This document shows positions 1,510 through 54,499 of a stretch of DNA of 64,000 nucleotides, one piece after another. Below the pieces are notes generated by a model, which saw only the letters and a program-made list of their open reading frames with translations, was not told where the DNA came from and did no database searches. This DNA is from an uncultured Acidobacteriota bacterium (GTDB lineage: Bacteria > Acidobacteriota > Blastocatellia > RBC074), in assembly GCA_963796275.1 (NCBI GenBank), contig CAWCKY010000004.1:1577431-1641430 (forward strand), in the 5' to 3' direction. Position numbers and translations under genes: made by a program. Positions within the stretch are counted from its first letter, which is position 1, and every line of letters starts with the position of its first letter.

Positions 1510-1558
1510 AAGGTCACCTGATCGGATGGTTAAAGGACCAGCGAGGCGATCTCCTGCT

Positions 1559-14665: not shown

Positions 14666-17579
14666 TGAGCGCCTCCTTTAACGATGCGCATCAACAGCAG
14701 TGGCCGAATCTCCGGAACAATCTGCCTTGCAGATTCCAACTCTTTGCGCCATTCAGACTCCTCAGCATCACATCGCACCAGCCGATGCTGGCGCACCTCG
14801 GGCAACCCAACACGATCAATGGCCTTTCGCCGTGAGCTAAAGGCGGTCGTTCCGCGATCTTCTTCCCGAACAATAGAAGCCATGTGCTCCTGCTGCAAAG
14901 TATCAAATTGCTCCCGTCCTACCTGTTCCGCTGCACACATAAGCCGGTCAGAGGCGGCCAGTGATTCATCGTGCCCCATGGCATCCAGCACCTTCGGTTC
15001 CACTGTCTGCAGGGCATCCCAGATATGACGGGCAGTTGGTAGAAATACCTTGCCTTCTTCGCTCAAGAACATACTTAAGTAGCGCCTTCGAACTATAGGT
15101 ATCTGAATCAGGTGGTTCTGCCTGTGCCTGCCAGCTTGTAAGCGGATTTCAAAAAGTCCCCAGTAACCTGACAAACTCAAGGGCACCCCACTCAGGGACA
15201 CACAGGGCAACGGCTGCCCAGCGGTGACTTGCGGCAGGTTGAGCGCCAATCCACGAACCTGGTTGTACTCCAGATTCAGCAAGGTGGCATCCGAAAGCCG
15301 GTCCGCCTCACGGGAACTAAACACGCACTTACGATACACTTGTCCATCCGGCCAAGTAAGCTCCCACCACGAGCGCTTTCGTGTCGCCTTACCTCCATGA
15401 GAGTTCAAATAGCCAACTGTCATCCGCTCCACCCAATGTGGCAAAGGATGGAAACGCAAGCGTTCGGCTACCTGCGCATCAGGCTCATCAGAAATACCAT
15501 AGATGGAGGATGAATCCCGTATTTCGCGGATATCTTCTCGAAAACGGGTCGCCGTCTGCTCCACCGATGATTCAATGCCATCCGGATTCAGTAAGGCTGA
15601 AGTGAAGACTTCCTCGAACAATTCGCCAGCTTGTGCCGAATCGAGCACATCGCCGGTCTTATCGATTCCAAACTCCTCGAAGATTACCGAGAGCTTTTTC
15701 TCCAGAACCTCCCGAACGCGGAATTCGACCGTGTTCTCAAAAACAAAATTGATGGCTTGCACCGTCTTTGACTGGCCGATACGATCCACGCGTCCAATCC
15801 GCTGTTCCAGCCGCATTGGGTTCCACGGGATATCGTAGTTGACGATAATGTGACAGAATTCCAGATTCAATCCTTCCCCACCGGCATCCGTAGAGACCAG
15901 GACACGAGCGTGCTCACGAAAAGCTTCCTGCGCGCGCTTGCGCTCGTCCATATCCATGGAACCGTTGAGCGTCACCACCGAAATACCTCTGGCCTCCAGA
16001 AATTCCCTTAACATCTCCTGGGTCGGTATGAACTCGGTGAAAATAAGCACCTTCAGATATTAGATCGTTCTGGTCAATTTGGAGCCGGTAAATCCATTCG
16101 ATCAGCGCCTCTGACTTGGCATCGGGGCCAGCCTGTTCGCATCTTCTGGCCAAATCCAGCAGGGCGTCCACCTGACCGCCTTCCCTTTTCAGAGTCGATA
16201 CAGGGAACCTCAAAAACTCATCGAGAAGTTCTTGGCCATCAAGGTCGTACATCTCGTCATACCCGTCGACAACACTAGCGCCATTTTGAAGCTCTTCAAG
16301 ATGTAGACTAGCCTGCTGCCTGCTATCAATTAGTGCCTCAAGCCGGTGTTCTAGCGTGGTGCGGATCGCCCGGGTGCTGGAAATCACCAACCGCTGCATC
16401 AGAATCATCAGAAACCCTATGTGAAGTTTCTTCTCTCGTATGGCTTGGTTATATCCATCACGCACATAATCGGTCACGGCATCATAAAGAAGTTGCTGGA
16501 GATGGTGTCGCGCTTCCCACGACACTCCCACCATCTGTGTGCGTCTGGGTTTGAATAGCGGCTTACCATCGGCATCTATGGCTTTCCGCTTTTCAGTGCG
16601 TATCACATAGGGGGCTACACGATCGCGAGAGACGCTATCTAAGTCTGGAAAGGCGTCGTTATCCAGCAGGTTCATCAGACGATAAAAGGCATCGGTTTTG
16701 CCTTGATGTGGAGTGGCCGAGAGTAAAAGCACATATGGAGCAGCGTCTGCAAGTCCCCGACCCAGCTTGTAGCGTGCTACCTGATCAGTGCTACCGCCCA
16801 GGCGATGAGCCTCATCCACTATTACCAGTATCCCAGCCCGCCGTCACCAGATCCTCAAAACGACTGCGGTTGTATTCCGTCACTCGTTGTAATGTCCAGC
16901 CACGCCGCTTGTCCAAGGGCTTTACAGAGTCCAGAGAAACTTCCACTTGATCAAACATCGCCCAAGGATTGTTCCGCAAGCGTGGAGCCTGGAGAGAGGG
17001 GGACATCATGTCGTCCCCGATTCTCACTTCATACTTTACATTCGAAATACGCTGCAGTGTGTTGATATCATCACCCAGAATAAGCTGGAACCGTTCGTTG
17101 AAATGATTCAGCATCTCCGCTACCCATTGCGCAACCACCAGCGTTCGACGCGACAGGCCGCGCAGTTTAAGTTCGCGCATGATAAGCCCAGCTTCAATGG
17201 TCTTGCCTAAACCGACTTCATCAGCCAGCAGGTAACGTACGCGGTCGCCGGAGATGGCTTTAGACAAGGCGTGGATTTGGTGTGGCAGTGGAATGACTTT
17301 CGACTCCATAGGAGCCAGAAGCAGGGGGCCTTCAGAAGCGCTGGCACCACCCTCAAGAACCTCGGCGACTTTTGATGCCGCAGCGACATAGCCAATCCGA
17401 TTGGCTTCAATATCTGGCTGAAGATCAGCGCTCAGCGGCCGAAGCGCAGAGCTAGGAATCCGGACTACAGCATCCTGATTCGGCAACCAAACACGGCAAA
17501 CCGTCTGCCCCCACAAGATATGCTCTTCGATGACTTTACAGGCGCAGTTGTGGATCACGCTATATTGCCATTGATTCAT
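14662..17579 (-). CDS. brxHII: BREX-3 SNF2-like helicase (three frames)
   Basis: LLADEVGLGKTIEAG, DEAH, LSATPHQG, TDAGGEGLNL and WNPMRLEQRIGRVDRIGQ. Confidence 0.9.
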
Positions 17580-17587
17580 CGCTCTGG

Positions 17588-18640
17588 TTATTTCGGTATG
17601 GAAAAGTCATTGTGATAAACAACTGAAGCCAGCTCTATCGTCCCGTCGGCGCATTCCCAGTAATGAAGATGGAATTCTCGGTCGATATCTCGGCGCTGAG
17701 CTTTATCATTCCCACGCATTCTTTGAGGGTCATTGCCTCCTGGGCCTGTTCTGAGCGCATGTACTGCGGCTAGATTCTGGTTTTTTATTGTTTCTACAAT
17801 TGATCGTAATATCCTTGGCGGTAAAGAATCTCCTTGATTAGTACAACAGTTCTGACAAGCCTTAAGGAAGTTTTGGCCGATAGTTGGCACTGAGGCGTTC
17901 TCCCAATCAGGGGCTTCACCTTGCGCAATACTATTCTTATATAAGGCGATCCTGATTGAAAGTTCTATTCCAAGATTGTCAGATGCACCAGTCAGAATAA
18001 CAGGCTCGTCAAGACATTCGATTAATCCTCTGAAGTCGTCACAGGCCAGAACGTCTCCCTCAAAAAATTCTGGAGGGGAGGGCAGTGTAGGAATGTCATC
18101 TCTTTCGTGTTCAAAAACATGAATCTGCGCTCGCACCCTTACCACCTGTTTTGGTGTTTGCCGGAGAATAAGTGAGTGGCCTCCGAGCGGTTGCCAACAA
18201 TGTTTCCGCAGGATTGCAATTGGAGTGACACAGCGGGCCAAATCCGATTGCAATCCTTTATATGTCGTCAACCTAATAATGTCCGGATCAGTTTCAAGTG
18301 GATCTGCCAACACATCTCTCACACGATAATAAGTTTCGAAGGAAGGGGTGATAGTCAGTAGCCGATCTGCAATTTTGGCGACCGTGTTTACGTCGTATTC
18401 TACGATCCCATGCGCATTAAATAACGCTCTAAGATGGTCACGTAGCGGATATAATCCATCTGCAAAAAGTGACTCAGATGCTCTTTCGCTCATATAAATC
18501 GCCACCCAAGGCTCGTCCAGAAGCTTGCTCCAATCTAGAAGTATATCGACGTACTTATACGCGTTCTCGGTAGAGCATGCTCCCTCGGGCACAGCTAGCA
18601 CTGCGGCATCAATTGTTACACTTGGCCTACTTTGTGTCAT
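17588..18640 (-). CDS. Uncharacterised protein with putative C-terminal RelE-like RNase domain
   Basis: Likely start MTQSRP at 18640 overlaps the ATPase stop; C-terminus RRDIDREFHLHYWE..IELASVVYHNDF. Confidence 0.6.
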   Translation of the reverse strand: MTQSRPSVTIDAAVLAVPEGACSTENAYKYVDILLDWSKLLDEPWVAIYMSERASESLFADGLYPLRDHLRALFNAHGIVEYDVNTVAKIADRLLTITPSFETYYRVRDVLADPLETDPDIIRLTTYKGLQSDLARCVTPIAILRKHCWQPLGGHSLILRQTPKQVVRVRAQIHVFEHERDDIPTLPSPPEFFEGDVLACDDFRGLIECLDEPVILTGASDNLGIELSIRIALYKNSIAQGEAPDWENASVPTIGQNFLKACQNCCTNQGDSLPPRILRSIVETIKNQNLAAVHALRTGPGGNDPQRMRGNDKAQRRDIDREFHLHYWECADGTIELASVVYHNDFSIPK

Positions 18641-20549
18641 CTTTCCTCCTGCGGGCAATACGTTTATTGGCTGCGGCACGTAGAATCTCCTCTGCCTGCT
18701 GCTGGGATTGATCAAAAAATCCCTCAGGCCACTGAGGGACAGCGCCGTACTCATTGATAATCACCTCACAGAAAGAAGAACTTAGAGCGGGTTTCTCTAC
18801 AAAGTAAATCTTTGTATAACTGTTAAGTTCGTCTCCTGGTATAGCAGCGGCAATTCTGAAGCGTAGGCGGTCAATAAAATATTCGCTGTGAGTTTCGACA
18901 ATGCATTGCTTATTACACAACGCCATCGACAAGAAAAAGTCTCCCAATAGAGTTTGGACTTTAGGGTGAAGATGTAATTCCGGCTGCTCGAAAACTAAAG
19001 TCGAGTCTTGGTCGGCCAAGAGACACATTACAAGGATTGGAAGAACCTGACTGACGCCGACACCAACGTGAGTAAGATCATATGTGCTTTCTGAATTCGC
19101 CAAACCAACTTTCAGTTCATGTCCCAACTTACCTTGATCCCGACTCTTTACAAAACTGGCTACTCCAAGGTATTGAAGCCAATCTATAACGGCGGATTCT
19201 AAAGTACGCGTTATAGTCTTCCGGTCGATAGTTGCCGATTTGAAATGGGATGATGGGATGTAATTGATTTTTTTATTCTTGTGAAGCTCTAGTATAGAAG
19301 CGGTATGCTCGCCACGTAGTCCGACATCAAAAGGATCTACTGCGGGTGCAAGCGGATATAGTGGCTTGGGGGCATCCCTCAATGGGCCAAGATATTTCAG
19401 GGATGACGAAAAAAAGTCATCCAAATATCTTGAAGCTTCCATTATTTGTCTGGGGGGCAAGGCCTGGATAATTGCATGGTTATCAGACTGTTGAGATGAC
19501 TTTTTTAGTGCTTCTAGAATCCGATCAAACAAATTATCCGATTCACGCAGTACTTGCTGAACCTTAATTCTAGTGCCGGGAGCCAGCGATCTTAATCGCT
19601 CATTCCAAAACCGTAACGATATTGTCTCGTTATCAGCAATAAGGGAAGATTCCTGTTGATACCTTATATTGAAGACTTCGTCGAAATCTATGGTGTCGCA
19701 AAGAATGTCACGTAAAACAGCAATTACCTCTTTAGTGAGAATAATACCTCGGTTCATACTCCTTCTAAGGCCTACTGTTCGGCGCCTGTCATCTTGTAAC
19801 GCCAGAGTTATTGAATTAGCTTCTTCTTGGACGGTATCAAGGCTATAAATTACTCTATCTGGCAGGAAATGCCTCAGTATGCATCCCATTGCCTTTGCGG
19901 AACGAAAATCCTCCCTTACTTCACTCATGGAATGATCATCAAGATCAACATCATATGCTAGACTTGCGCGAAGTTGGTCGTCGAATTCATCCATGGCGTT
20001 CATGCCGTCAATTTGCGATATCGCCTTACTTGAATGTCGTATAGATATCTCTGCTTTTAGGTCGACATTATCCTCATCTCTCGATATGCACAATAACCGG
20101 CTCGCGAAGAGCCTAGGCTGTATCTGGAACAGCTCTCTTTGTGAACTCGATGGGTCAGCATCAAAAGAAATTTCGCAGGAAACCTCACGGAGTTGAGTAT
20201 ACCTTGACCCATAATAGACCGTTCCTCTCGTATATACAGCGGATGATGCTATAGTCGGAATATCTGTATTTGGCAATGGGTTGCAAGTGCATTTGACTAC
20301 AATTTGATCTGACTCACTACCATTTGACTTTAGATCATCAAATTGCCCAAGACTTGTAAGTGCTCCATTCAAAACAACGGAGCGAGAGCTGACTTTGTGA
20401 GATAGCGTTTGGGCTACGAGCAGAATTGATTGGATTAATGTGCTCTTCCCACTGCTATTCGCACCGGCGAATATGGTTAATGGTCCAAGAGACAATTCAG
20501 TTTCTTCACGAATTGACTTAAAATTGAACACTTCCCATTTGGTGATCAT
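18627..20549 (-). CDS. ABC-type (AAA_15/AAA_21) ATPase with DUF3696 C-terminus
   Basis: NFKSI, GANSSGKS, VGVGVSQVLP, FEQPELHLHP, IVETHS and WPEGFFDQ. Confidence 0.88.
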   Translation of the reverse strand: MITKWEVFNFKSIREETELSLGPLTIFAGANSSGKSTLIQSILLVAQTLSHKVSSRSVVLNGALTSLGQFDDLKSNGSESDQIVVKCTCNPLPNTDIPTIASSAVYTRGTVYYGSRYTQLREVSCEISFDADPSSSQRELFQIQPRLFASRLLCISRDEDNVDLKAEISIRHSSKAISQIDGMNAMDEFDDQLRASLAYDVDLDDHSMSEVREDFRSAKAMGCILRHFLPDRVIYSLDTVQEEANSITLALQDDRRRTVGLRRSMNRGIILTKEVIAVLRDILCDTIDFDEVFNIRYQQESSLIADNETISLRFWNERLRSLAPGTRIKVQQVLRESDNLFDRILEALKKSSQQSDNHAIIQALPPRQIMEASRYLDDFFSSSLKYLGPLRDAPKPLYPLAPAVDPFDVGLRGEHTASILELHKNKKINYIPSSHFKSATIDRKTITRTLESAVIDWLQYLGVASFVKSRDQGKLGHELKVGLANSESTYDLTHVGVGVSQVLPILVMCLLADQDSTLVFEQPELHLHPKVQTLLGDFFLSMALCNKQCIVETHSEYFIDRLRFRIAAAIPGDELNSYTKIYFVEKPALSSSFCEVIINEYGAVPQWPEGFFDQSQQQAEEILRAAANKRIARRRKDDTK

Positions 20550-20552
20550 GTG

Positions 20553-23392
20553 CTACTCATCTCCCATTCTTGTCATCGCTAGGTTATACCACATAAGCAG
20601 CTTTGGATTTCTTCGAGCACGTTGTTGGGAATCTTATCAGCTATACCAACGATGGTAGCGTAGTCGCGCTCTTGCCAAGCTTTCTTGAAGCCGGCGCGGA
20701 CGGCTTCAAGGCGAAAGACTTTGAGCTTCTTCTTCGCTTGTCTATACTCCTCGAATTCTCTGAGCAGGGCTTTTTCGCGTAGTTTTTCTAGATCGCCTGC
20801 CTTGTTAGGTATCTGGAACGTACCATCTGTCACGGGCTTTTGCGATCAATGCCGAATTATCTTTCGGCAGGTTACGCATTTCCTTCCAGTTGGTAGATAG
20901 GTAGGAGTGAATCTGTTCCGGCACCGGGCCTTTACCGTCATATCGCAGAAAGTTTTGATCCAACAATTCAGATAGCTCTATGGCTCTCTCATTTTTTTGC
21001 CAGCCCCCCTGTGTTTCACGCATGAATTGTGGCTGAAGATCCTGAAATGTCTGTGGTTTTCTAATCACCTGTTGTTTTACCCACTGAATGGCGGACATTT
21101 CATCAGAAACGAAGAGGTCGAGTTGGAGCAGTTCCCTCGACGTCATCCGCTTACGCTCGTACTCAGCGACCTGATCTGTCAGGAAGTACATGCCATCGCG
21201 CTCGGGAAACCGCTGGGCCAGTCCTTGGTAAAAGTCGCCTGCAGAGAGGGGTACGCTGACTTCGCGCTGTACGTGAAAGGCGACCATGCGGTCGAACAAG
21301 AGTATCTGTTGCCTCTCCGCAATAATTTGCCCAAGCCCATCTTTGATAATGAAAACGGGAAGTTGCCGAAGGTGGGTTCGAATGAAATCCCAGACACCCT
21401 CTTCTGTTCCAGCGTGAAGTTGGAATCGCTTTTCGAGCCCGCCGTTAGGTTTGTAAGCGGAGATGACAAGGTCCTTATCGACTGCCTTGGCGTGCAACTG
21501 CTTCTTGGTCTTCATTCCTTTATCGAGAACGCTGACATCAGCGATGATGAATCCTGCGCGTCCCAACGCCTCCTGTATCGCGGTCCATACGGCGTTCTTG
21601 GAATTGTGAAACTCTATCGTGGCCCACCGGCCTGGCTTTAGGATGCGATAGACCTGTTTCAGGCAATCTGTCATCATCTTCGTATAAATGAACAAGTCTT
21701 TCCGTTGCTTTCCGCTTACCACGGTATCCTGACCTGAGTTTGTGAATACGTGGAGCCACGCCTCCCACAAAAAATTTAACTCGGCGTAGGGTAAGTTGTC
21801 GCCGAAGGGCGAGATCGTATGAACACATAATCAATGGAGTTATCCGGGATCAGTACAGAGGCGAGAGACTGGGTGGTTATGGCTACTGAGGAGCAACATT
21901 TTGGAAGAGCGTTGCCAAATCTCTTGATCTTTCCGGTTAAGACATACGTCGGGCTTGGTTCGCTAACTGTTGAGCCGATGTAGAGTGTGCCACTCAAGGC
22001 GCGGTTAACCTGGGAATAGGCGTTCTTCAGGAATCTATTACGACGGGTAAAGCTCACGACAACACTCTGCAACGTGAACCGCCAGAGCCGCTTCATTTCC
22101 TCTCTAGGCAGGTCATCAATCATTTGCCACAATAAAGAGAACGCGGCAAGTTGGCGCGAGAGGTGAAAATCGTGAGCGCGGCTGATCCCCTCGTGGTATC
22201 CTCTATAAAGATCTCCCCATTCTTCTCCCTCTGACACAAACATCATCAATTCTGTCGGAAACTCGATGGAGTCAAACAGTCGCTCGACTTTCTCAAGGCA
22301 GGCTAGATCGTCACGATCGGGTTTCTTGCTTTTCTTCAACCCTCGATGTCGGTATCGAATCTCCACTGGACGCAAGACTTGACGCGACCGAGTAGCCTTT
22401 ACCGCCTTGTCGTAATAAGTAGTTGTAAGTCTGACAAGATCACGCTTAGACACCTCTGCAGTACAATGAGGACAGGCTAGCTGATCGGCTAACGATCCCG
22501 ATTCTTCATCATAGGCCAAGTCCCAGAACTCCAGTTCACCGGCGCAATGGGGGCAGGAAAAGATATCTGACCAGATGGTGAAGTCAATCGGGCAAGTCTC
22601 CCCTGTCTTGGGATCTCGCGTCTCATACATCCACCAGTATTCTCGGTTGAATTTGTCCAGAAGGTTTTGCGCAAGTTGCGCGAACTCCTTCGAATCATTC
22701 GTTAAGTTATAACCCGCTGCTATCAATGTTGCAGCGGACGAGAGGTCGTTCAGAATGGAAATTCGCTCTCCCAATTTAGAGAACCTTTGCTTATGTTCAT
22801 CCAGAATGCTTCCATCTGCAGTTAGCGTATAACTAAGGGATGCAATTGTGTTTCGGTCCCCGCACATTTGCGCGGCCACGCCAGTCATCCCAGTTCCACA
22901 GAAGCCATCAAATATTATGTCACCCGGCTCGGTGTAATGAAGAATGTACCGCATGATAGCTTTATGCGGCACCTTAGTATGATAGGAATGCGCATTGTAG
23001 ATTGGGTCGTTCTTGCCCTCGCTCACATCAGCGGCAAACGGCTCTCGGTGATATTGGTGGTCTTCAGGCTTTTCCGGCTTTTGGGCTTCCCATTCAGCAA
23101 TGAAATCTGCAATCCAAGGATTCGGGCAGGCGGTGTAATACGGAGGATCGCTCAGATTCAGAATCTCTTCGCCGTTACCGATGGGAAATCCGTCGATGTT
23201 GCGGAATTCCGGATCTTTCAGCTTTTCCCGCAGTTTCTCGGTGAAGTACTTGCGTCGCTCCTCATCGTTGACAAAGGTCATGCCGAGGCAAGTTACAGCC
23301 TCGGACTGCCTCCACGCCTTTCCAGAGATCGTATCAAACAAGCTATTGTTACTCATATCCAAATTCTGGATTACATTTTGTCTCTCAGACAT
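20553..23392 (-). CDS. pglX: BREX-3 DNA methyltransferase PglXI (several frameshifts)
   Basis: HSYHTKVPHKAI, FDGFCGTGMTG, two CPHC motifs, garbled DPPF motif near 21810, C-terminal FRLEAVRAGFKKAW. Confidence 0.9.
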
Positions 23393-23394
23393 TC

Positions 23395-27123
<3,729 letters not shown>

Positions 27124-27127
<4 letters not shown>

Positions 27128-27657
27128 CGTGTCTGCTCCAGAGCCACTTCAGTTCCTGTTTTCGCGCCAACGTCTCCGGCCAGAGCTTCCGGAACGACTA
27201 TCAGAAAATCCTGTATCGGATATCGCTTATATTCAGGGTGGTCCGGCGTTGCATAGACCATATGTTCACGATCCACGGAGCCACTCCAGGATACAACTAC
27301 CGTTTTGTTTCGTGAGACTCCTTGTAAGAGCCTCAGCGGATCCTGCTTGAGCGAGGCATCGAACAGTACCTCAATGTTGTCGAGCAGGATCAGCTCGGCC
27401 GGGTCTGCATTCATGATTTCCAATAAGAGGTGGGGCAACTGCAGCGCCCGCTGGCGTTCGGTAAGTTCAAGCATATGCCTAGACAGTTCAAGGTTGACAT
27501 TGAAAACAGGGGCTCCCGTTCGCGCGTGAAGATATTGGAGTGCAGCGGTCTTTCCCGCACCCGCCGGGGCCACAAGTATGACGAGACGGTTGTAAAGTCC
27601 CGCTGCCTGGCCGATCTTAAGTATGATCCTGTCAGTAAGTGAATCAGGCATTTTCAT
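27124..27657 (-). CDS. brxF: BREX-3 P-loop protein BrxF
   Basis: [27 protein letters not shown] and YATPDHPEY; overlaps the brxC start. Confidence 0.9.
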
Positions 27658-28651
27658 TATCCTTCCAATCTCACGAGTTTAGACAGATAAAGGTAGGCCG
27701 CTCGGCCTACCACGAGGCAAACACCAGCGGTATACTCGTGGTGTGAAAATAGAAAATGCCTCGATGAAAAGTGTACATAAATTCCGAGATACTGTCGCTA
27801 CCAGTCTGGGAGCCGGCGCTGCGATGCTATTAATGCAACCGACGCTTTGGCCATATGGCCACGTCATCGATCCCCAATCGAACGGACGCTCAGCGAGATT
27901 TTTGCCTATGATTGGAGCAGGTTGAATCAGGTGCTACGCATGCCGACCGGCTTGACTTTCATCAAGTTGGCCTAACAACTCTCACACTCGTTCGCAGAAC
28001 AAGGATGATTTGACTGGGCATCTCTGCCAACAGCCGTATCTGCCGGCCCACTCCCGACATCACTTCTTCCACTTCTTTTTCTGCATATCGGATTGGGCTT
28101 TCTGATCTCAAGACGGCAGTTGCGAAGAATATCGGGAAGTCGGTCACGGCCACCAAAATTTCTCCATATCCACTTTAAAAGCTGCTACTTCGGATTCCTG
28201 ACACGTGATGATTTCGCCGGATTACCAGCACGATAGTTCATCCGTTTGTTCGTCCATATCTGTCATCATCGCATCGTAATCATACAGAATCAGAATACAA
28301 GTTGTCTCCTGGTCGCACCCGAGATTTAAGGTTCTTCAATTTGGGCCCTAATTATCTCAAATTGATCTGATTTGTGTCGAGGTTGAATTGGTACACCTTC
28401 AGGGCTTGAATACGCGCTCTCTACGACGCTCAGAGAGGTCGCGATTGACGAGTGCTGCCGCATCATTTGATGCCGCCTATCGATAGTGACAAGCGTCGCA
28501 TGATTGGCTTAGATGTCAGCCACGTGTTCCCACATCCTGATGTTGGATTCCTAGAATTCGAACTGGCTTTGTGAGCAATGCGAACGGGGTTGAGCTTAGT
28601 GCCCCTTATGACGCTGACGGAGCAAATGACGACAGGTTGGCGATTGATTCC

Positions 28652-30000
28652 TCACTTGGTAACGTGTCGCCGCGCCCATTCCAACCAATCGTAGAGAGTT
28701 GTGCGGTTTATTCCCAGCCGCTGAGCCGCTGCCGAATGACTTCCTAATCGGAACCGCTCCCGTTCATAAATCGCCATCACTCCCCGGCAAATGTATTCTC
28801 GCATCGTTTCGCCCTCGCGCAGCGTCCGGGAAACACTCGGTGTTACCTGGCGCGAGCACAGACTGTCGTTCGAGCTCCATCTCGCGCCGCACGTGGTCTG
28901 TCGTGATTATCCGGCCGCTGCCAGCCTTGGCCGCCAGGCGCTCAATAGTTGAAATCAACTGCCGCACATTCCCCTTCCAACTATAGCGACAGAGTAGCCC
29001 CATGGCTTCTTCCTCGAATTCAACAGCGGGGAAATAGTGCCGGATAAGAATCGGGATGTCTGTGGGACGTTCTCTGAGAGCCGGCGTCCGGATAGGGTAT
29101 CCGCACAGGCGATCATACAGGTCGCGGCGAAAGCGTCCCTTCATCGACTTCACGAAGGAGATCATGATTGGTCGCGGCAATCAGGCGTATATCTATCTTG
29201 ATCGCCTGCTGTCCCTCCGACTCGCTCGAGTTCACGTTCCTGCAAGACGCGCAAAAGCATCGCCTGGCTCGGCTGGGGCAGATCACCGATCTCATCGAGA
29301 AACAATGTTCCGCCGTTTGCCCTCTCGAATCGGCCTAGTTTGCGAGCGATGGCTCCGGTGAACGCCCCTTTCTCATGTCCGAACAATTCACTCTCGATCA
29401 AATTGGGATTGATTGCCGCACAGTTGACGTCGATGAAAGGCTTTCCCTGCCCGGTTGCTGGCCTTGTGTATGCCGCGCGCGACGAGTTCTTTGCCGGTAC
29501 CCGGCTCGCCGGTGATGAGGACGCTCAGATCGAGGCCTCGCGGCGATCGCGATATTTTTCCTGACTTCTCGCATCAGTTCGGATTCGCCGACGAGTTCAT
29601 CCATTACCACCGAGTGGCCTTCACTTCCCCGCCCTCCAAAATGTGTACGTCGTCCCTCCTCCTGCCAGTACCTCGATGCGATGCGCGGCCAGATGAGCGG
29701 CATACTCAAGCTCGCTTACAATCGAACCGTCCATTGGTTCAAGATATTTCACGACAAGACGGGTTTGCCCGCCCTCGACGTCGACCGCCAGTTCATTGAT
29801 CCTCCCGGACACGACCCCGGCGTTTGGAAGTTCGAATTCGCGCTCCAGCCTCCCGCGCGTGAACCTGACGCTGCACAGACGGATTCCTTTCTCCGCCGCT
29901 ATCCTTGCGAAGCCATCCAGCACATCTTCGATACTCGCGCTCTGCGCCAGCCTGAGTAAAAGGCTCGCGCCGGCCAGGAGCGCTCTTTTCTATTCGAGAG
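28652..30000 (-). CDS. Sigma54-dependent enhancer-binding protein with atypical N-terminal domain (multiple frameshifts; start approximate)
   Basis: [39 protein letters not shown] and [16 protein letters not shown] across frames. Confidence 0.8.
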
Positions 30001-30217
30001 ATGACGGGGCACCATCGGCCTCCTCTCTTCCTCCAATGAGCAGGCCAGTAACGTCGGGGGATACTATTTGATCGGGAAACCTCGGTGCATGGGTGTGTGT
30101 TGATGCACTCGATGAGTTACAAATCTTTTGAAGCTAGACTTCTAAGGGGCAGGGTGATCCTACACAAAGATCGACGGTTTGTCGGTTTGAAATTGACTCT
30201 GTGAATGGCTGACTCAG

Positions 30218-30943
30218 TCAGAAGCATACCCAACTCCAGGTGGGAGAAAATATCCGATAGCCCTGCTGATCGCCAGGTAGCATTCGCACACGGCGCTCTT
30301 CGAGCCCTGCTCGATTCAGGATACTGATGCGACCGCGCAAATAGTGAATCAGCCCTCTCTTCTGTAATGTTCCCGCAGCCAGGCTAACACTACTGCGGGA
30401 AACTCCGAGCATCTGTCCCATGTTGTCGTGCGTGAGAATCATCGAATCGGAAGAGACGCGGTCCTGCGCGATCAGCAGCCAGCGCGCCAGGCGCTGCTCT
30501 ATAGTATGAAACCAATTGCAGGTAACCGTCAGCGCAATCTGTTCGCTCAATGTATGCGTATACTCAAACAGCAATTCATAAAAAACTCTTTCCTGTCCGA
30601 GCATATTCTGCAATTCCTTCGTGCCGATCTGCAGCGCCTCTCCTGAAATCTGCACGTGCGCACAGAATGACATTCCATTTCTTTTCGTGATCCCCGATAG
30701 GCCGACCACGCCTTCTCGGCCAACTGCCGCGGCCTCGATAAACTCGCCAGCCTCGGTGGTAGTGAGCAATGAGACGATTCCACTGGTGATAAACCATGCG
30801 TGATCAGATGTGGAGCCAATATCGTAGAGCGTACTGCCTGCTTCCAGGCGAACACAATTGAGGCTTGGTATCAAGCGATCATATACGGCAGGTGTAAGGG
30901 CAGCTAACACCCCGTTCTCGTTGGGGATCGGTCTAACTAACAT
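30218..30943 (-). CDS. Crp/Fnr-family transcriptional regulator
   Basis: NGVLAAL, VGREGVVG, HTIEQRLARWLL and LTHDNMGQMLGVSRSSVS. Confidence 0.9.
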   Translation of the reverse strand: MLVRPIPNENGVLAALTPAVYDRLIPSLNCVRLEAGSTLYDIGSTSDHAWFITSGIVSLLTTTEAGEFIEAAAVGREGVVGLSGITKRNGMSFCAHVQISGEALQIGTKELQNMLGQERVFYELLFEYTHTLSEQIALTVTCNWFHTIEQRLARWLLIAQDRVSSDSMILTHDNMGQMLGVSRSSVSLAAGTLQKRGLIHYLRGRISILNRAGLEERRVRMLPGDQQGYRIFSPTWSWVCF

Positions 30944-32566: not shown

Positions 32567-33742
32567 TCAGTTGATCAGTTGAGCCCCCGGTAGGTATGGC
32601 TTATCTTTCGCTATCATGCTTGCGATTTCCTCATTCCATTCATCAATTGCATTCGCAGCCGTTTCCAGGGAATCCTTAGTCAGACCAAGATACGTGAATG
32701 TCGTCTCAATATCGGTGTGACCGAGTCGGCGTGCGATTTCGTGAATCGGAACACCTTTCTTTGCCAGTCGCGTTCCAAACGTCCGCCTAAAATCATGGAA
32801 GCGCAAATCCTCAATTCCGGCCAACTCGCAAACAGAGTTGAAACTTTTACTTACATTGTTGGTAATGCCGAAGACTAATGAATCTGGGTTTTTGTCCGAC
32901 TGATCCCATAATTTTCGAAGCTCTTCCCTTAAACGTTTTGACAGCGCCGCCTCACGTTCACGGAGAGTTTTGGTGTTGAATTCTCGGACCGTTGCCTTCC
33001 GCTTTTCAGCAATATTGAATTTTTCGCCATCCCAGTCGAGATCAGACCATTTTAGTTTGAAAATCTCGCCTCTACGCATTCCTGTGTCGATTGCGCAAAT
33101 GATGATAGGTCTCAAGTGTTCTCTCGGCCCATCACAAGCGGCGAGTAGTCTTATCTCTTCTTCCGATTCCAGGACACGTTTCCTTTTTACCTCGTCAGCG
33201 GGATTGATCAAAGGCTTAGGCCCCTTGAATGGATTCAAATACAACCATCGCTCACCGATAGCGATATTCAATGCATGTCTAAGCAGGCTTAGCTCGCGAT
33301 CAACTCTTGCTACAGTGCGTTGTTCGCCGCGTATGGTGGGTGTCTTAAGGCGCAGGCTCCTGAATCTTTCAATCTTGCCCCATGTAATTCCTCGCAGTTC
33401 CATTCGCCCGAACGATTCTCGAAGGATTTTCAGAATACCCAGATCGTCTTTGTAAGAACGTTTCCCCGCGACTTTTCTGCCATTCACATATTCCGGAGGA
33501 ATCAAGTAGTGCTTCTCAAGATGATCGGCGAGGTCATTGAAGGTGGTACCGATGGCATTGAGCGATTCTGGACCATGATCTTCAAGCTCACGGATGAAGT
33601 TGGAGATGACCGTTCGCCCCTCAGTTTTAGTTCTTACTCGCTTTTCTTTGCTGCGCCGTTTGCCTGCGGAATCGGTATAATCGATTCGTGCAAACAATTT
33701 TCCGTCGCGTAGGTGGATTGTGCCTGTTCTAGATCGCGCCAT
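32567..33742 (-). CDS. Tyrosine recombinase/integrase, intact
   Basis: TGMRRGE, TKT, FHDFRRT and LGH..IETTFTY; adjacent to the tRNA fragment. Confidence 0.95.
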   Translation of the reverse strand: MARSRTGTIHLRDGKLFARIDYTDSAGKRRSKEKRVRTKTEGRTVISNFIRELEDHGPESLNAIGTTFNDLADHLEKHYLIPPEYVNGRKVAGKRSYKDDLGILKILRESFGRMELRGITWGKIERFRSLRLKTPTIRGEQRTVARVDRELSLLRHALNIAIGERWLYLNPFKGPKPLINPADEVKRKRVLESEEEIRLLAACDGPREHLRPIIICAIDTGMRRGEIFKLKWSDLDWDGEKFNIAEKRKATVREFNTKTLREREAALSKRLREELRKLWDQSDKNPDSLVFGITNNVSKSFNSVCELAGIEDLRFHDFRRTFGTRLAKKGVPIHEIARRLGHTDIETTFTYLGLTKDSLETAANAIDEWNEEIASMIAKDKPYLPGAQLIN

Positions 33743-33777
33743 ATCAATTTCTTTCTATTGCAAACTCCATTCCATGC

Positions 33778-33953: not shown

Positions 33954-34002
33954 ACGGACTGAAAATCCGTGTGTCGGCGGTTCGATTCCGTCCCTGGCCA
34001 CC
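33954..34002 (+). other. 3' half of tRNA-Phe(GAA), att site (not an intact tRNA)
   Basis: ACGGACTGAAAATCCGT anticodon arm, GGCGGTTCGATTCCGTC T-arm and CCTGGCCACC; no D-arm or 5' acceptor strand upstream. Confidence 0.9.
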
Positions 34003-35635: not shown

Positions 35636-36847
35636 TTAGACAATCAACGAATTCGCCTGTTCAACGACGTCCGCTGCCTTTAATTTCCTGTCGAACCACA
35701 AAACATTGAGCTCTTCGGCCACTTCGTCGTTGAGCGCCAGATGTTTTGATACTGCGATAATGAGGTTGCGCGGATCGGTCTGTCCGAGTTTCGCAAGCTT
35801 GCGGCTTAGATACTCGGGCGTCCAGAAACCGACAATCTCCAGGTGCACTTCGCGGCGGCCATTGGCGGTTTCAATGCGCAATGTGAAATCAGGGATCAGC
35901 ACCTCATTTCTGATCAAAGGGATCACCGCATCAGCCCGTGCGAGTTGCCATCCATCGTGAACTCGCTCGAATATTTTCCCGAAGTCTGCGGCGAAATCGC
36001 GTTCCAGTCGAGAATCATAAAAAGGAAAGCGGCGAAAATGGGAGACCAGACTGCTCTGATCGTCGAGTGTAAAAATAAGCTGCCGGCCACGCTTGATCAG
36101 CGTCGCTTCCATCCGCCATTTTCGGCAAAGCGCCAGCGCGGGAAGAAAGATTGCCATCTTAATACCGTAACGAAGGCTCCCCTTGAGCAGCGAGAGGGGG
36201 CCGTTGAGATCAATTCGATAACCGCGAGCGCGCCGCTCGATACTATGCATCAGGCGGCAGAGTTTGATGTAACGAAAGATGTCCTGATATGAGTCCTCGA
36301 TATCGATCGTCAGACGTTCGGCCCAGTACAACAGCCCGCGGGCCAGTTCCATGTTGTAACGAGCGATCAAAGCGCCCGGATCACAAACGGCTGTGAATCC
36401 GATTAATCGCTGCCGCCCGGGAAGATCTGAATAAAGCCCACTCTCCAGTTGATCAGGAGTAAGACCGATACAACCGGCGACTTCGCTAAGAATGGATTGG
36501 CGATCGTGTTCGAGCGGCGATCTCTTATCTAGAACGATCGGCCATGCATTCGCAGCCCGCTCGAACACTGTGCTCCGGATCATCGCTGCGTTCCGAGTTC
36601 GCGGTTCGAACTCTGCGAATTTCATCAATATCTTGCCCAGGCCGCGAACGATACGGTAATCGGTTCGGCCCTCTGCACATCTTTCCATCGCCGTTTCTAG
36701 CTCATCGCGCGTCTTACCGACACAGTTGCGGAAGACCTTGAATAATTCACTGACGGTATGCCGATAACGTGGGGAGTCGGGATCGACGAAGGCCGGGCGT
36801 ATCTGATCACCCTCGATCCGATAGCGAAGAAGGTCTTTAGTCAGCAT
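35636..36847 (-). CDS. DUF790 (Bax1-like) endonuclease
   Basis: MLTKDLLR, YN..LA.GLL, YG..MA.FLPAL, IPDF and EIVGFWTPEYL. Confidence 0.9.
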   Translation of the reverse strand: MLTKDLLRYRIEGDQIRPAFVDPDSPRYRHTVSELFKVFRNCVGKTRDELETAMERCAEGRTDYRIVRGLGKILMKFAEFEPRTRNAAMIRSTVFERAANAWPIVLDKRSPLEHDRQSILSEVAGCIGLTPDQLESGLYSDLPGRQRLIGFTAVCDPGALIARYNMELARGLLYWAERLTIDIEDSYQDIFRYIKLCRLMHSIERRARGYRIDLNGPLSLLKGSLRYGIKMAIFLPALALCRKWRMEATLIKRGRQLIFTLDDQSSLVSHFRRFPFYDSRLERDFAADFGKIFERVHDGWQLARADAVIPLIRNEVLIPDFTLRIETANGRREVHLEIVGFWTPEYLSRKLAKLGQTDPRNLIIAVSKHLALNDEVAEELNVLWFDRKLKAADVVEQANSLIV

Positions 36848-36861
36848 AAGTCAGCATATCT

Positions 36862-38328
36862 TCAAAGCCTGGAGATTCTGTTCGCGTGTCCGGCGTACGC
36901 TTCGTTCTGACGTCTTCGCCGGCTCGTTCCGGTCTCTATCGTTGCACGTACCGTTACCTCGTAGAGGACAGCCAGTTTATTAGCTTTCCGGCGGAGAATG
37001 CGGCCGAGCCGCTGCGTATGCTCACGCGACGATCCGCTTCCGCCCAGTATGATCGCGATTTTGGCATCGGGTACATCGACCCCTTCGTTGAGCACTCTCG
37101 AGGTGACAACGGCTTTGTACTCGCCGCATTCGAATCGCTTCAAGATGGATTTCCTTTCACGCGTCTTCGTTTGATGAGTTATGGCGGGAATGAGAAATAT
37201 CTGCGAAATTCTGTAAGCCATCTCATTGCTGGCTGCAAAGACTATAGCCTGATCTGCGGCGTGTCGGCGGAAAATTTCTTCGAGCATATCGAGTTTTGCG
37301 CCAGCCCCGGCAATAATATTGCGCATTTCATACCACGCCTCCAGTGCGCGCCGTGCTCGCAAATCATGGCTTTGCTCGCGCACTAGCAGTTCCAATCGCC
37401 CGTCGTTCTTGTAACCGGACTTCAGCGCTTCACTCGCTCGCCCGCTCTCTCCCTCTCCAGATCTCTCCTTCTCCCGTTCTTCCCTTCTATCCCTCCGGTT
37501 CTCATACCAATACTCCTGATAGTTCGATTCTTCGCGTTCGTATGCGCGACGTTCTTCCACAGAAAGTTCAACGCTGAGTCTGATCACTTCGTAGGGAGCC
37601 AGTCTGGTCCCTCTCAACTCGCGAATCGGTTTCCAGAAGGCGAGGGGACCGATCAAGCGGTTCAATTCCTCAGATGCCCGCGGATCGTAGGTGGCAGTTA
37701 GTCCCAGGCGAAAGGGCGCGATTGCCAGGCGCGCAATCTCCGCCCAATGCGGCGCGGTCATATGATGAACCTCGTCGAGGACAAGAAGTCCGAAGCGCGC
37801 GCCGATCTCACCGATGCAACGGTAGGCGCTCTGATAGGTGATAACCGTCACGTCTCGAATTTCGCAGGTCCCCTGACCGACGATGCCGATTTCGATGCCG
37901 TAACACTCGGTCAGACGATGATACCACTGGTTAAGTAGATCGAGCGTGGGTACGACTATGATCGTGGGGCGTTCAGTCAGATTGATGGCTTTCAGCGCGA
38001 CCACAGTTTTGCCTGCACCTGTAGGCAATACCACGATGCCGCGCCGGTCCTGCAACTGCCAGGCTGTGACTGCTTGTTCTTGATAATCGAAGAGCTGGAA
38101 TGATGTGAAGGGCCGGATACGTAGGGCCGCTGGATCGTATCGCCGCGCCTTATCTATAAAAGGAATTTTATTCTGCCGCAGCCAGAGGACGGTATCACGA
38201 TAGCGAAATCCTTCCGCTCGCCAACTCTTAACTCGCTCATCCCAGATGAAACCGGCGAGCTTTATCCCCGCGTTATAGTCGATGGCGTCCATTAGGAGCG
38301 TACCTTGATCGAAGGAGAGAGTCAGCAT
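36862..38328 (-). CDS. XPB/Rad25-like SF2 helicase
   Basis: [27 protein letters not shown] and QRLGRILR. Confidence 0.9.
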
Positions 38329-39641: not shown

Positions 39642-42047
39642 ATGGCACTTAAGAAATCTGAACTTTACAGCTCACTCTGGGCCAGCTGTGACGAGCTCCG
39701 TGGGGGCATGGATGCTGGCCAATACAAGGACTACGTGCTGATGATGCTTTTCATCAAATATGTCAGCGACAAATACGCCGGCATGCCGTACGCGCCGATA
39801 ACTATTCCCAAGGGGGCCGGCTTCTCTGACATGGTCGGGCTCAAGGGCAAGCCCGACATCGGCGACCAGATCAACAAGAAGATCATCGAGCCTCTGGCCA
39901 GGGCTAACAACCTGGATGAGCATGCCGGATTTCGACGATGCCGCCAAACTCGGCAGCGGGAAGGAGAAGGTGGACCGGCTCACCAACCTTATCGCCATCT
40001 TTGAAGACAGAGCGCTCGATTTCTCCAGGAACAGGGCTGATGGCGATGACATTATCGGCGATGCCTATGAATATCTGATGCGTAACTTCGCCACCCAGAG
40101 TGGCAAAAGCAAGGGGCAGTTCTATACTCCCGCCGAGGTCAGCCGCGTCATCGCCCAGATCATCGGCATTCGCGAGGCCAGGACGACGAACAAGACAACC
40201 GTCTACGATCCGACCTGTGGTTCCGGCTCATTGCTTTTGAAGGTGGCCGATGAAGCCAGGGCGAAGGTCACGCTCTACGGTCAGGAAAAGGACTCCGCCA
40301 CGGCCGGACTCGCCCGGATGAACATGATCCTGCACGACAACCCGACTGCCTGTATCGTGCAAGGGAATACGCTCGCTCACCCTCAATTCAAAGAGAGCGG
40401 TACGCTCAAGACCTTCGACTACGTTGTCGCCAATCCTCCGTTCAGCGACAAACGATGGAGCAACGGCGTCGACCGGCTGAACGATCCATACGAGCGTTTC
40501 AATTCGTTCGGCACGCCGCCCGACAAGCAGGGCGATTATGCCTATCTGCTGCACATCGTGCGATCGCTCAAGAGCCACGGCAAAGGCGCCTGCATTCTTC
40601 CGCACGGCGTGCTGTTTCGCGGCAATGCCGAGGCCGATATACGCCGGAACCTGATTCGCAAAGGCTACATCAAGGGCATCATCGGCCTGCCTGCGAATCT
40701 CTTTTACGGCACGGGCATTCCCGCCTGCATTATCGTCATCGACAAGGAAGACGCTCGATCACGCCGAGGGATATTCATAATCGACGCCGGCGCGGGCTTC
40801 ATGAAAGACGGCGACAAGAATCGCCTGCGCGCAATGGATATTCACAGGATCGTCGATGTTTTCAACAATCTGCGTGAGATTTCGGAATACTCGCGCATGG
40901 TTTCTTTCGAGGAGATCGAGCGCAACGAGTTCAACCTGAACATCCCGCGCTACATCGACAGCCGGCAGGCTGAGGACATTCAGGACATTGAGGGACACCT
41001 GCGCGGCGGCATTCCCATGGCAGACGTGGATGCGCTACAGCCCTATTGGGATGTGTGTCCCGAGCTACGGCGCGCGCTGTTCAAAGATAACCGCCCCGGC
41101 TATCTCGATCTTGCTGTTGACAAGCAGACCATCAAATCCTCCATTTACGAGCACGCCGAGTTTGTTCGTTTCACCAAAAACATGAATCTCCTGTTCGCCG
41201 ATTGGCGAGAAGGAACACTGCTCTGCTTAAGGGCTTACAGACGGGGTTTCACCCCAAACAGTTGATCCACGACCTCGCCGAAGATCTGCTCGCGCTCTAC
41301 TCCGGCAAACCGCTGATCGATAAATACGACGTCTATCAGCATCTGATGGATTACTGGGCCGAGACGATGCAGGATGATTACTATCTGATCTCCGCCGATG
41401 GTTGGAAGGCGGAGACTCGCCGCGTGTTTGTGAAGAACAAAAAAGGCAAGGAAATAGATAAGGGCTGGGTCTGTGATCTCGTGCCAAAGAGCCTGATCGT
41501 GGCCCGTTACCTCGCCGCCGAGCAGGAGGCGATCGAAAAATTTGAGGCTAAGCTCGAGACTGTTGTCGCCAGGATGACCGATATGGAGGAAGAGCACGGC
41601 GGCGAGGAGGGAGTCTTTGCTGAGCTCGAAAAGGTGAACAAGGCAACGGTTGCGGCTCTACTCAGGGATTTGAGGCTTGAGAATGGTGAGCCGGAAGCGA
41701 AAGAGAACGAGGTGTTGGAGCAATATCTGGAACTCTGCGAACAGCAGTACGATCTGAAAAATTTACTTAAGACAGCCCAATCGAATCTCGATACGCTTGC
41801 CTATGACAAATATCCGACGTTGATGGAGGACGAAATCAAGGTGCTGGTGGTGAATGATAAATGGATGGCTGCTCTCAATACAGCTGTCCGTGAAGAGATG
41901 GACCGTATCAGTCAGACATTGAGTCGGCGGGTGAAGGAATTGGCGGATCGTCATGATATCCCGATGCCTCGGCTAGCAAGCCGGGTTGATGAGTTGGAAC
42001 AAAGAGTAGGCAACCATCTGGAAAGGATGGGATTTTCATGGAAGTGA
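39642..42047 (+). CDS. hsdM: Type I R-M methyltransferase subunit (three frames)
   Basis: LWASCDELRG, GQFYTP, YDPTCGSGSLL, VVANPPF and LPHGVLFRG. Confidence 0.93.
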
Positions 42048-43319
42048 GGCAGGGTTACAAACAAACCGAGGTTGGGATGATTCCGGAAGATTGGGAATTG
42101 CGTTCACTACTGACCACAGTTTGTATTGCAAGTGGACAAGTTGATCCAAAGATTGAGCCTTACAAGTCAATGATTTTAGTGGCACCGGACCACATCGAAA
42201 GCTCGACTGGGCGATTGCTTAGTCAGCGAACCGCATTAGACCAAGGCGCAATTAGCGGTAAATATCTCTTCGAAAGGGTGACATCGTTTATAGCAAGATA
42301 CGTCCGAATCTACGGAAGGCTATTATTGCAAGCTTTAACGGGTTGTGCAGCGCGGACATGTATCCACTCAAGCCCACCAGCGATGTTTGTTCTGGGTTCA
42401 TGCTGGCTATCCTTCTTGGGCGTCGCTTTTCAAAGTACGCCGAATCTGTTTCGGTTCGTAGCGGAATGCCAAAGATTAACCGAGCAGAGTTGGCAGAGTT
42501 TATAGTCGCCCTGCCACCTCTTCCTGAACAAGAAGCCATTGCCGAAGTCTTGAGCGACGCTGATGCCCTCATTGAATCCCTTGAGCAACTCATCACCAAA
42601 AAACGTCTCATCAAATACGGCGCCATGCAGGAATTGCTCACTGGGAAGCGGAGGTTGCGTGAGTTTGCTGATACGTCGACAGGTTACAAACAAACTGAGG
42701 TTGGGGTGATTCCGGAGGATTGGGATTCGCCTGAACTTGGTGACATCTTGAAATCTGTGCAGCTAGGCGGAAACTATAGGAATAGTGAGCGTGAATCGAA
42801 CTGGCCGCTAATCAAAATGGGCAACCTTGGGCGTGGCAGCATCAAACTCGATAAGCTGGAGTTCATTGATTCTGCGCATCCCCCCTCTAATCGCGACAGA
42901 CTTGAGACCGATGATTTGCTTCTCAATACAAGAAACGCGCTGGATCTCGTAGGGAAAGTGGCCATTTGGCGCAACGAACTGCCAGAAGCATACTTCAACT
43001 CAAACGTCATGAGGCTGAAGTTCGATGAGCAGCGCGTGTCCTCCTACCGATTCATGAACTACATCCTCAACATGTCGCGTTCCTTAAGAGGATTGCGAGG
43101 GATCGCAATCGGAACGACGAGCGTAGCGGCCATTTACGGTAGGGATTTGGTGAAGCTAAAGATTCCGCTGCCTACTAAATCCGAACAAGAAGCCATTGCT
43201 AAAGTCTTGAGCGACATGGACGCCGAGATTGCCGCATTGGAAACTAAATCGCCAAATATCGCCAAGTCAAGCAAGGTATGATGCAAAACCTCTTAACCGG
43301 AAGGATTCGATTAAAATGA
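42038..43319 (+). CDS. hsdS: Type I R-M specificity subunit (frameshifted)
   Basis: Two [13 protein letters not shown] repeats and two P..EQEAIA.VLSD.DA conserved regions. Confidence 0.92.
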
Positions 43320-44307: not shown

Positions 44308-44311
44308 AACG

Positions 44312-53248: not shown

Positions 53249-53290
53249 TGGTCTTAAAGCGATGAGGGGTCGAATCCCTCACTCTCTGCC
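53249..53290 (+). other. Degenerate tRNA-Ser-like 3' fragment (possible att remnant)
   Basis: GAGGG-GTCGAAT-CCCTC T-arm followed by ACTCTCTGCC, about 125 nt from the integrase stop. Confidence 0.45.
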
Positions 53291-54470: not shown

Positions 54471-54499
54471 TGCCGCTGGTGATTTCGTTTTGGACAGCA

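Follow-up and report, generated by a model that had tools for sequence, protein, structure and literature searches.

We studied the last 64 kb (hereafter the window) of contig C4 (CAWCKY010000004.1) in the genome assembly of an uncultured acidobacterium of the class Blastocatellia (GCA_963796275.1; 9.46 Mb in 7 contigs), in which a gene for a Crp/FNR-family regulator is followed, at two places, by a gene for a sigma-54 enhancer-binding protein (EBP). On balance, we think that this pair is a lineage-restricted accessory regulatory module of Blastocatellia, made of a Crp-like protein and an EBP with a GAF-like sensor domain, and housed in DNA rich in mobile and defence genes. The two cassettes lie in the minus strand at 28652-30943 (copy 1) and 57654-60023 (copy 2). 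An earlier inspection of the letters alone (the sequence-only reading) had described this gene order and strand at both places, and open reading frames (ORFs) and Pfam matches bore it out.

The regulator of copy 1 (Crp1; 30218-30943, minus strand), a 241-amino-acid (aa) ORF as assembled, matched HTH_Crp_2 (1.1e-15) and cNMP_binding (1.1e-7) and was 66% identical over residues 1-216 to the Crp of a related locus, L013. Its C-terminal tail is out of frame past about 30297, and the CxC motif of the other copies is lost from that frame. The activator of copy 1 (EBP1, A-type; 28652-30015, minus strand) was recognized by Pfam on pieces of the gene (Sigma54_activat 2.4e-28, AAA_lid_14 2.2e-15, HTH_8 22.1 bits); the gene comprises an N-terminal domain (N-domain) at about 29640-30015, followed by the AAA+ domain for sigma-54 interaction and, at 28652-28810, by a C-terminal helix-turn-helix (HTH). 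In copy 2, the regulator (Crp2; 59187-60023, minus strand) matched HTH_Crp_2 (1.1e-9) and cNMP_binding (2.9e-7), and an A-run near 59338, 1 nt shorter than in the third copy described below, lengthened its ORF to 278 aa. The activator of copy 2 (EBP2, B-type; 57654-59088, minus strand) matched Sigma54_activat (4.9e-63), AAA_lid_14 and HTH_8 (22.8 bits, cut-off 22) and is divided by a single frame break near 58569 into an N-domain ORF (58543-59088) and an AAA+/HTH ORF (57654-58559). Both EBP2 frames were matched in a tblastn search with P0002, one of five unbroken relatives (P0001-P0005) of 456-482 aa.

The N-domains of copies 1 and 2 shared 32% identity over 99 aa (E 2e-9), so that the common N-terminus of about 100 aa proposed earlier was recovered, together with the peptides quoted for it; a Pfam scan of both N-terminal regions likewise agreed that the activators lack a receiver domain. 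Crp1 and Crp2 were 42% identical (E 3e-50). A search of the genome with the N-domain revealed a third cassette at C1:19684-22069, with the same gene order, an EBP of 481 aa (EBP3) and both frames unbroken, and a fourth copy is represented by a remnant on C7, where a Crp HTH fragment and spacer motifs lie between a nonribosomal peptide synthetase gene and a WD40 fragment. Crp2 and the regulator of the third copy (Crp3) were 88% identical, and the DNA of copies 2 and 3 was 91% identical over a stretch that starts some 230 bp before the Crp gene, takes in this gene and the spacer, and ends about 45 codons into the EBP gene; past this point EBP2 and EBP3 diverge, with N-domains 63-66% identical. 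Given this shared stretch and the diverged remainder, copies 2 and 3 form a mosaic produced by recent duplication or conversion, unlike copies 1 and 2. The earlier statement that the copies are diverged and not a recent duplication stands for copies 1 and 2 and does not extend to the 91% part of copies 2 and 3.

As assembled, EBP1 is interrupted by seven frame breaks (2 nt at about 29976; 1 nt each at 29656, 29538, 29447, 29209, 29139 and 28823), Crp1 by one more, and each of the copy 2 genes by one. One could take the window copies for dead relics, i.e., true pseudogenes of a decaying module of which only the C1 copy could be active, all the more as the family is disrupted elsewhere (a transposon-split EBP at locus L032, locus L030 in three pieces, an internal gap in the Crp of L012, and the C7 remnant). 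We consider this unlikely. A frameshift-aware alignment of EBP1 to P0010 and to the L013 EBP ran from end to end without a stop codon once one nucleotide had been skipped at six places and two at another. Contigs of relatives in public sequencing data (two runs hold small shares of the sequence, 0.06 and 0.05), which are about 85-95% identical and do not come from the source organism, had one letter fewer at 28823, 29135, 29210, 29442, 29536/7, 30126 and 30297 and two fewer at 29978; all of the approximately nine differences were extra letters in the window and none was a missing one. In addition, the essential rpoB/rpoC region of the same assembly (C6:1265800-1274600) has no open frame longer than about 370 aa, and frame breaks need not be biological in such an assembly. 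Because rpoB/rpoC is also broken, the extra letters run in one direction and nonsense codons are absent, the breaks in both window cassettes are very probably assembly errors and the genes may be intact. The assembly thus carries clustered indel errors, pseudogene calls in this genome need read-level confirmation, and the breaks in three defence genes described below (PglXI, BrxHI and PglZ) are probably artefacts too. A 2194-aa TamB/Omp85 protein is open in the same assembly.

The activators are typical in their central and C-terminal parts. PF00158 (cut-off 20.2) scored 212 bits in copy 2, 214 bits in copy 3 and 99 bits in the copy 1 fragment. Walker A (GE(S/P)G(T/S)GK) and Walker B (FLDEIG) sequences are readable in the EBP translations, and a GAFTGA loop in those of copy 1 and the C-type copies. 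The C-terminal HTH barely exceeded the HTH_8 cut-off of 22 bits in both window copies (22.8 and 22.1 bits), and three C-terminal helices (residues 421-480) were predicted in the full-length model. An rpoN gene is present in the genome (198 bits).

The N-domain, in turn, had no relative in the sequence libraries. No Pfam family matched the two window N-terminal regions at E ≤1e-2 or eight N-domains searched singly at E ≤10; the N-domain profile matched no PDB sequence at E up to 10; and the domain alone had no PADLOC match (0/5 sequences) and no NCBIfam match. The sequence-only reading was right to call it unnamed as far as these libraries go, and its further guess of a degenerate GAF domain fits the fold searches. 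AlphaFold predicted a core at residues 30-135 (pLDDT about 90) composed of two helices, four antiparallel strands and a long helix, and the same elements recurred in the full-length EBP model, whose domain packing is unreliable (pTM 0.53). The fold assignment was based on VIA-align against 48,161 chains, for which the best 50 rows were listed. The GAF domains of KdpD (Z 10.5, rmsd 3.1, 106 residues aligned), Nlh1 (Z 9.1) and 3cit (Z 9.0) were each aligned over about 100-106 of the 108 or so core residues, and LuxR-type ligand-binding domains (Z 8.4-8.6) and the NifA GAF domain (Z 7.4) followed; best Z values of 7-8 are common for unmatched models, and the top scores are only moderately above that level. 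GAF was named in the titles of 12 of those 50 rows, and phytochrome or phosphodiesterase sensor modules made up many of the rest. Foldseek found no PDB match at E ≤1e-3, the best being the DosP PAS domain (3.5e-3) and Nlh1 GAF (3.1e-2). ESM Atlas matches, which serve as leads only (scores 0.79-0.82), placed GAF-bearing sigma-54 regulator clusters at ranks 2, 4 and 6.

From these models we read the N-domain as a trimmed, divergent sensor of the GAF/PAS class, with about 105 residues; canonical GAF domains have about 150. With such a fold, the EBP would be a divergent member of the GAF-AAA+-HTH activators typified by NifA, NorR and Nlh1, and its architecture is not new. It resembles the GAF-bearing EBPs (NifA, NorR, FhlA, Aquifex Nlh1/Nlh2, PDB 4g3k) in domain order, in the GAF-type sensor, in an AAA+ domain with a GAFTGA-type loop and in the Fis-type HTH, and differs from them in the smaller N-domain with its four predicted strands and without a GAF model or PDB sequence match. 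The best NCBIfam scores of the EBP were those of nifA, AtoC and NorR, all below their cut-offs and covering the AAA+ domain and linker from residue 117-150 or so onward. A second comparison is with the RtcR/PspF-type EBPs, which PADLOC lists as CRISPR/defence regulators and which are likewise sigma-54 activators in stress or defence contexts: EBP3 matched PDLC01995 (RtcR_PspF2--CARF_AAA_HTH) at 3.2e-100. The AAA+ and HTH parts account for this match; the CARF fold is Rossmann-like, and the N-domain differs from that of RtcR in being predicted GAF-like and not CARF.

The partner protein belongs to the Crp/FNR family (CRP, FNR, NtcA, CooA) by both defining Pfam domains. Crp1 and Crp2 have the cNMP_binding barrel and the Crp-type winged HTH above the cut-offs, and Crp3 has the HTH above and the barrel slightly below its cut-off (25.2 vs 27.5); the NtcA model matched weakly (28 bits vs a cut-off of 245). 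The position that corresponds to R-[ST]-A of the reference motif reads PLYA, SFCA, AFRA or KLRA in the Crp-like proteins when alignment A10 is inspected by eye. The Crp-like protein thus appears to be without the arginine of the cyclic-nucleotide phosphate-binding cassette, and the cassette residues look degenerate; compared with CRP, neither the arginine nor the serine that holds the cAMP phosphate is evident. The description of this protein as a cyclic-nucleotide-type sensor is therefore kept for the barrel fold only, as the phosphate-binding arginine is apparently gone. In four of the five Crp-like sequences with an in-frame tail, three cysteines are kept, a single one ahead of the HTH and two in a C-terminal CxC, which is not the cysteine pattern of FNR. 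A redox signal, a metal or another ligand seems as likely as a cyclic nucleotide for this protein. The genome contains six more Crp-like matches (C1:4252, C1:65088, C1:169656, C1:1307415, C4:518401 and C6:1774; 27-55% identity), of which C1:4252 is partial and several lie near contig ends. We discarded the idea that Crp paralogues always accompany an EBP, as the five full-length ones have no EBP within 6 kb.

The spacer between the two genes contains conserved sites. In copy 1 (30016-30217, minus strand) there is an operator-like CTGACTGAGTCAG at 30209-30221 and an imperfect palindrome, TGTGTAGGATCAC, at 30154-30166. Spacers of the A/C-type copies have the palindrome CTGACTGAGTCAG, a second ACAGAGTCA unit and the imperfect palindrome TGTGTAGnnTCAC(A), which is of the TGTG-N6-CACA type, as is the case for Crp/FNR sites, and is located about 145 nt before the EBP start. 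These blocks are kept in copy 1, L013, L032, L024 and the C7 remnant, and TGTGTAGnnTCAC(A) also in the more distant L006. The exact copy 1 palindrome occurs once in the window, in which 1.66 matches would be expected at ≤1 mismatch. The copy 2 spacer extends from 59089 to 59186 (minus strand) beyond the assembled Crp2 ORF, and in truth to about 59325. It includes a GG-N10-GC element, TGGATGTTGTGTTGCT, at 59104-59119 and, inside the frame-extended Crp2 ORF, the palindrome GGCGAC-N3-GTCGTC at 59225-59253, which stands for the block GGCGAC-N3-GTCGCC of the B-type copies; both blocks are conserved in copy 2, copy 3 and L012. A reading of TGGATGTTGTGTTGCT as a -24/-12 promoter is weak, with a predicted transcript start about 6 nt before the ATG.

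The conserved palindrome suggests that the Crp-like protein controls the EBP gene. We infer the following chain: a dimer of the Crp-like protein would bind the spacer palindrome TGTGTAGnnTCAC in the A/C-type copies and set EBP transcription; the GAF-like domain, on receiving another signal, would gate the assembly or the ATPase of the AAA+ ring in the way known from NorR and NifA; and the active EBP would open sigma-54 promoters.

Thirteen loci were found to hold the N-domain. The related-locus scans gave at least one metagenome locus and at least two genome-contig loci and are not a census. All eight testable loci of the f1 type (family f1 and its metagenome relatives) have a co-directional Crp gene, always of one subfamily, immediately before the EBP gene: copies 1-3, L006, L012 (Crp with the internal gap), L013 (the same as L018), L032 and L024 (cut by the contig end). 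L008 was not scorable for Crp with its 399 nt of upstream sequence. In three of the four loci of family f3 (L028, L029 and L031) the EBP is accompanied by a divergent pair of genes, for a sigma-70-like protein of about 360 aa and a zf-HC2 protein of about 445 aa; in L028 the sigma-70 region 2/4-like matches were below the Pfam cut-offs and zf-HC2 above, and L029 and L031 were assigned by visual comparison with L028. The zf-HC2 protein looks like an anti-sigma factor. Two of the four f3 loci have a different Crp-family gene downstream of the EBP and convergent with it.

The N-domain family has the rarity and the patchy distribution of accessory genes. Searched against 1,835,955,588 representative proteins, a profile built from six N-domains gave 39 matches at E ≤1e-3 and 19 at E ≤1e-10; many of the 39 are fragments, P0006 is most likely the window's own product and P0042, a repeat protein, is probably spurious. 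The full-length matches are EBPs of 450-492 aa. P0003, P0005, P0006, P0040 and P0042 were left out of the 42-row alignment A3. In a phylum-wide sample the domain was present in 2 of 401 genomes (the window's own and one of the same family), and in a sample of the class Blastocatellia in 9 of 401; by family, the latter were 4/86 in f1 (own genome excluded), 4/53 in f3, 0/220 in f2 and 0/41 in the other families. Neither of the two same-genus genomes (73% and 87% complete) had the domain, and no relative was found among IMG/VR viral contigs (two scans) or PLSDB plasmids (two tblastn searches).

Several observations weigh against parts of this reading. On the sensor, the same Pfam scans gave no match of the N-domain to the GAF models PF01590, PF13185 and PF13492, the predicted domain has four strands, and the DosP PAS domain ties with the best GAF domain in VIA-align at Z 10.5. 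In copy 2 the GAFTGA loop is altered to GAFTDA, and P0001, whose identity to copy 3 is 91%, has GAFTNA at this place. On the regulatory step from Crp to EBP, the spacer motifs of the B-type copies differ from those of the A/C type, and the step depends on DNA blocks among fairly close relatives, only L006 being distant. The EBP of family f3 has no upstream Crp in any of the four loci and hence does not require this pairing; the conserved Crp-EBP pair described earlier is a feature of the f1-type loci. As to targets, TGGCAC-N5-TTGCW with ≤2 mismatches had 32 matches in the window vs 31.4 expected, i.e., chance level, and a weighted GG-N10-GC scan of the window, seven cassette loci and the genome returned no convincing target near the cassettes or in the island described below. 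On the state of the genes, dnaE (1188 aa) and BrxC (1200 aa) are intact, so the breaks are unevenly spread in the assembly.

The strict adjacency of Crp and EBP in the eight f1-type loci would also be expected if the Crp-like protein regulated the EBP by direct contact with the GAF-like domain and not through its promoter. Control by a partner protein is known for EBPs that have a GAF domain or lack a sensor, as for NifA, which answers to NifL. Nevertheless, we regard this mechanism as improbable here: the f3 EBPs do without the Crp gene, the complete HTH of the Crp-like protein and the conserved spacer palindromes point to DNA binding, and we found no specific evidence for contact. A complex prediction of Crp3 with the EBP3 N-domain gave scores of 0.00 and 0.00, hence no verdict, and speaks neither for nor against binding. 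Control through the spacer palindrome is preferred for the Crp-like step of the module.

Copy 1 lies in an island that adjoins a tRNA gene. An intact tRNA-Phe at C4:1500350-1500425 (ARAGORN) marks the left end of an island of about 111 kb, and an attR-like 49-nt copy of the tRNA-Phe 3' end at 33954-34002 (plus strand; blastn, 98% over 49 nt) the right one; ARAGORN found no tRNA in the window. The island (C4:1500350-1577430 and window positions 1-34002) contains, at the attR end, a tyrosine integrase (Int1; 32567-33742, minus strand; Phage_integrase 6.3e-29), as well as a TraG/TraD-type coupling protein (TraG-D_C), an SLT transglycosylase, a weak DUF3854 match, insertion sequence (IS) elements, a HigBA pair and a complete BREX defence gene set. 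The VirB4 Pfam model had no match, and relaxases were not searched for. By its gene content the island may be an integrative conjugative element, and we call it no more than an ICE-like island. Two other coupling-protein loci of the genome are on contigs without an N-domain profile match.

A second tyrosine integrase (Int2; 53279-54631, minus strand; Phage_integrase 2.9e-15), 34% identical to Int1 (E 4e-49), lies 3.0 kb from copy 2, and Int1 is 1.6 kb from copy 1. The proximity of each cassette to a homologous integrase, within about 3 kb as first reported, is real in the window and is not conserved: tblastn revealed no Int1- or Int2-like sequence at any of the 11 further loci, which were searched as 12 records (copy 3 is covered by two of these, and 38 kb of its surroundings were included). 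Int2 itself looks like a later insertion between EBP2 and an older neighbour. That neighbour, at 52149-53138 (plus strand), encodes a 329-aa protein that is single-copy in the genome and has no Pfam, PADLOC or NCBIfam match; it is separated from EBP2 by 4.5 kb with Int2, a deaminase gene, an IS fragment and a TonB-like gene. At L012 a 339-aa homologue (3653-4672; 58% identical) is convergent with the EBP and directly beside it, which is why the separation in the window suggests a later arrival of Int2. The 329/339-aa family shows by eye a D...E-x-K nuclease-like motif. The Int2 ORF start is over-extended across a dispersed palindromic repeat of about 90 bp (around 54500-54590), which had about 120 BLAST matches across the contigs, some of them 92-100% identical over 114-143 nt.

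The neighbours of the cassette differ at every locus; away from the tRNA-Phe island, IS elements or defence genes flank the module. Those of the relatives include transposases, SIR2-like, PLD-like and Mrr-type nuclease domains, a Strawberry-notch-type helicase and CHAT-TPR proteins. At L032 (G599:C430) the EBP is split by a transposon of about 6 kb (708-6441) with a TnsA-like/Mu-type transposase, TniB and TniQ, the C-terminal EBP piece being at 126-446. The L013 cassette, on a 7.9 kb contig of a Blastocatellia metagenome-assembled genome, starts about 850 bp downstream of tRNA-Pro(CGG) (4228-4301) and adjoins recJ and pilus genes; no integrase was found on that contig. There is fair reason to see the module as borne by accessory islands and not as the core of any one element. 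The notion of an element-borne cassette accordingly survives for copy 1, in the tRNA-Phe island, and for accessory DNA in general, and not as a core part of a single element.

The BREX locus (11906-27657, minus strand; PADLOC and Pfam) begins 1 kb downstream of EBP1. All six genes of the set (BrxF, BrxC, PglXI, BrxH, PglZ and BrxA) were recognized by PADLOC models, with BrxF at 27124-27657, BrxC at 23525-27127 and BrxA at 11906-12673 (all in the minus strand); as assembled, PglXI is in 2 ORFs, BrxHI in 3 and PglZ in 2, and an NsnB/AriA-like ATPase gene (18627-20549) and a 388-aa ORF are inserted between PglXI and BrxHI. The position of the copy 1 cassette, directly upstream of BREX and co-directional with it, is like that of the BrxR/CapW-type (WYL) regulators, which are encoded ahead of BREX and other defence operons; the proteins are of other families, the cassette adjoins BREX at a single locus, and neither an operator nor a promoter was found to link the two.

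This arrangement could mean that the cassette is an element-borne switch for island excision and transfer or for cargo genes, the cargo of copy 1 being the BREX operon. Copy 1 is 1 kb upstream of brxF, co-directional with it and in an island with an integrase and a coupling protein; there is a GG-N10-GC site at 33759-33774, 17 nt upstream of the Int1 start, and a weak one at 27892-27907, 235 nt upstream of brxF; and relatives of the family sit among defence and mobile genes. Even so, such a switch seems improbable to us. BREX adjoins the cassette only once amid ever-changing neighbours, Int1- and Int2-like genes are missing from the 11 other loci, the two further coupling-protein loci are on contigs without the N-domain, and a terminator-like hairpin and sigma-70-like hexamers separate EBP1 from brxF. 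The promoter-like sites are also at chance frequency. The genome scan for GG-N10-GC gave 180 sites at ≤1 mismatch, with 4 falling within the final 141 kb of C4 (the island and the rest of the window), and no sigma-54 site stood out upstream of BREX. Thus, when the scan for -24/-12 promoters that had been proposed for the elements was run, none of the sites could be assigned, and nothing in our results showed the suggested control of mobility or cargo. We therefore retain the reading of an accessory two-gene regulatory module.

Other features of the window were noted. To the right of the tRNA-Phe repeat there is a second defence cluster, with an HNH gene, DUF790 and XPB-type helicase genes (PADLOC PbeA models; 35636-38328) and, further right, a type I restriction-modification system (39916-43281) and a DUF6602/NucC-like nuclease (49426-50304). 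A fair match to GG-N10-GC, TGGCCGTGATTTTGCA at 44009-44024, lies about 230 nt upstream of a gene for a 909-aa MacB/FtsX-type permease (44255-46984).

The module differs from known systems in its miniature sensor domain, an orphan by sequence, in the constancy of the Crp-EBP pairing within one bacterial family and in its accessory-island habitat. In the literature, titles and the opening lines of abstracts contained no description of such a pairing, or of sigma-54 control of BREX or genomic islands. A bolder and quite improbable extension is that the module is a portable two-signal switch of Blastocatellia that puts parts of mobile and defence islands (BREX, transfer) under sigma-54, with the GAF-like domain sensing a small molecule of stress or infection and the cysteines of the Crp-like protein sensing redox state or metal; if true, it would be a sigma-54-based counterpart of the WYL- and CARF-type defence regulators. 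The practical value of the finding, for now modest, would grow with a target promoter or a ligand. If our reading of the module is right, a small GAF-like sensor, an orphan in sequence, would join the known input domains of sigma-54 activators, and its fixed association with a regulator of the Crp family, whose gene is separated from that of the activator by a candidate operator, would be a pairing not described before. The module would also be an example of sigma-54 regulators that travel with the accessory genes and defence islands of Acidobacteria, a group whose regulation has been little studied.

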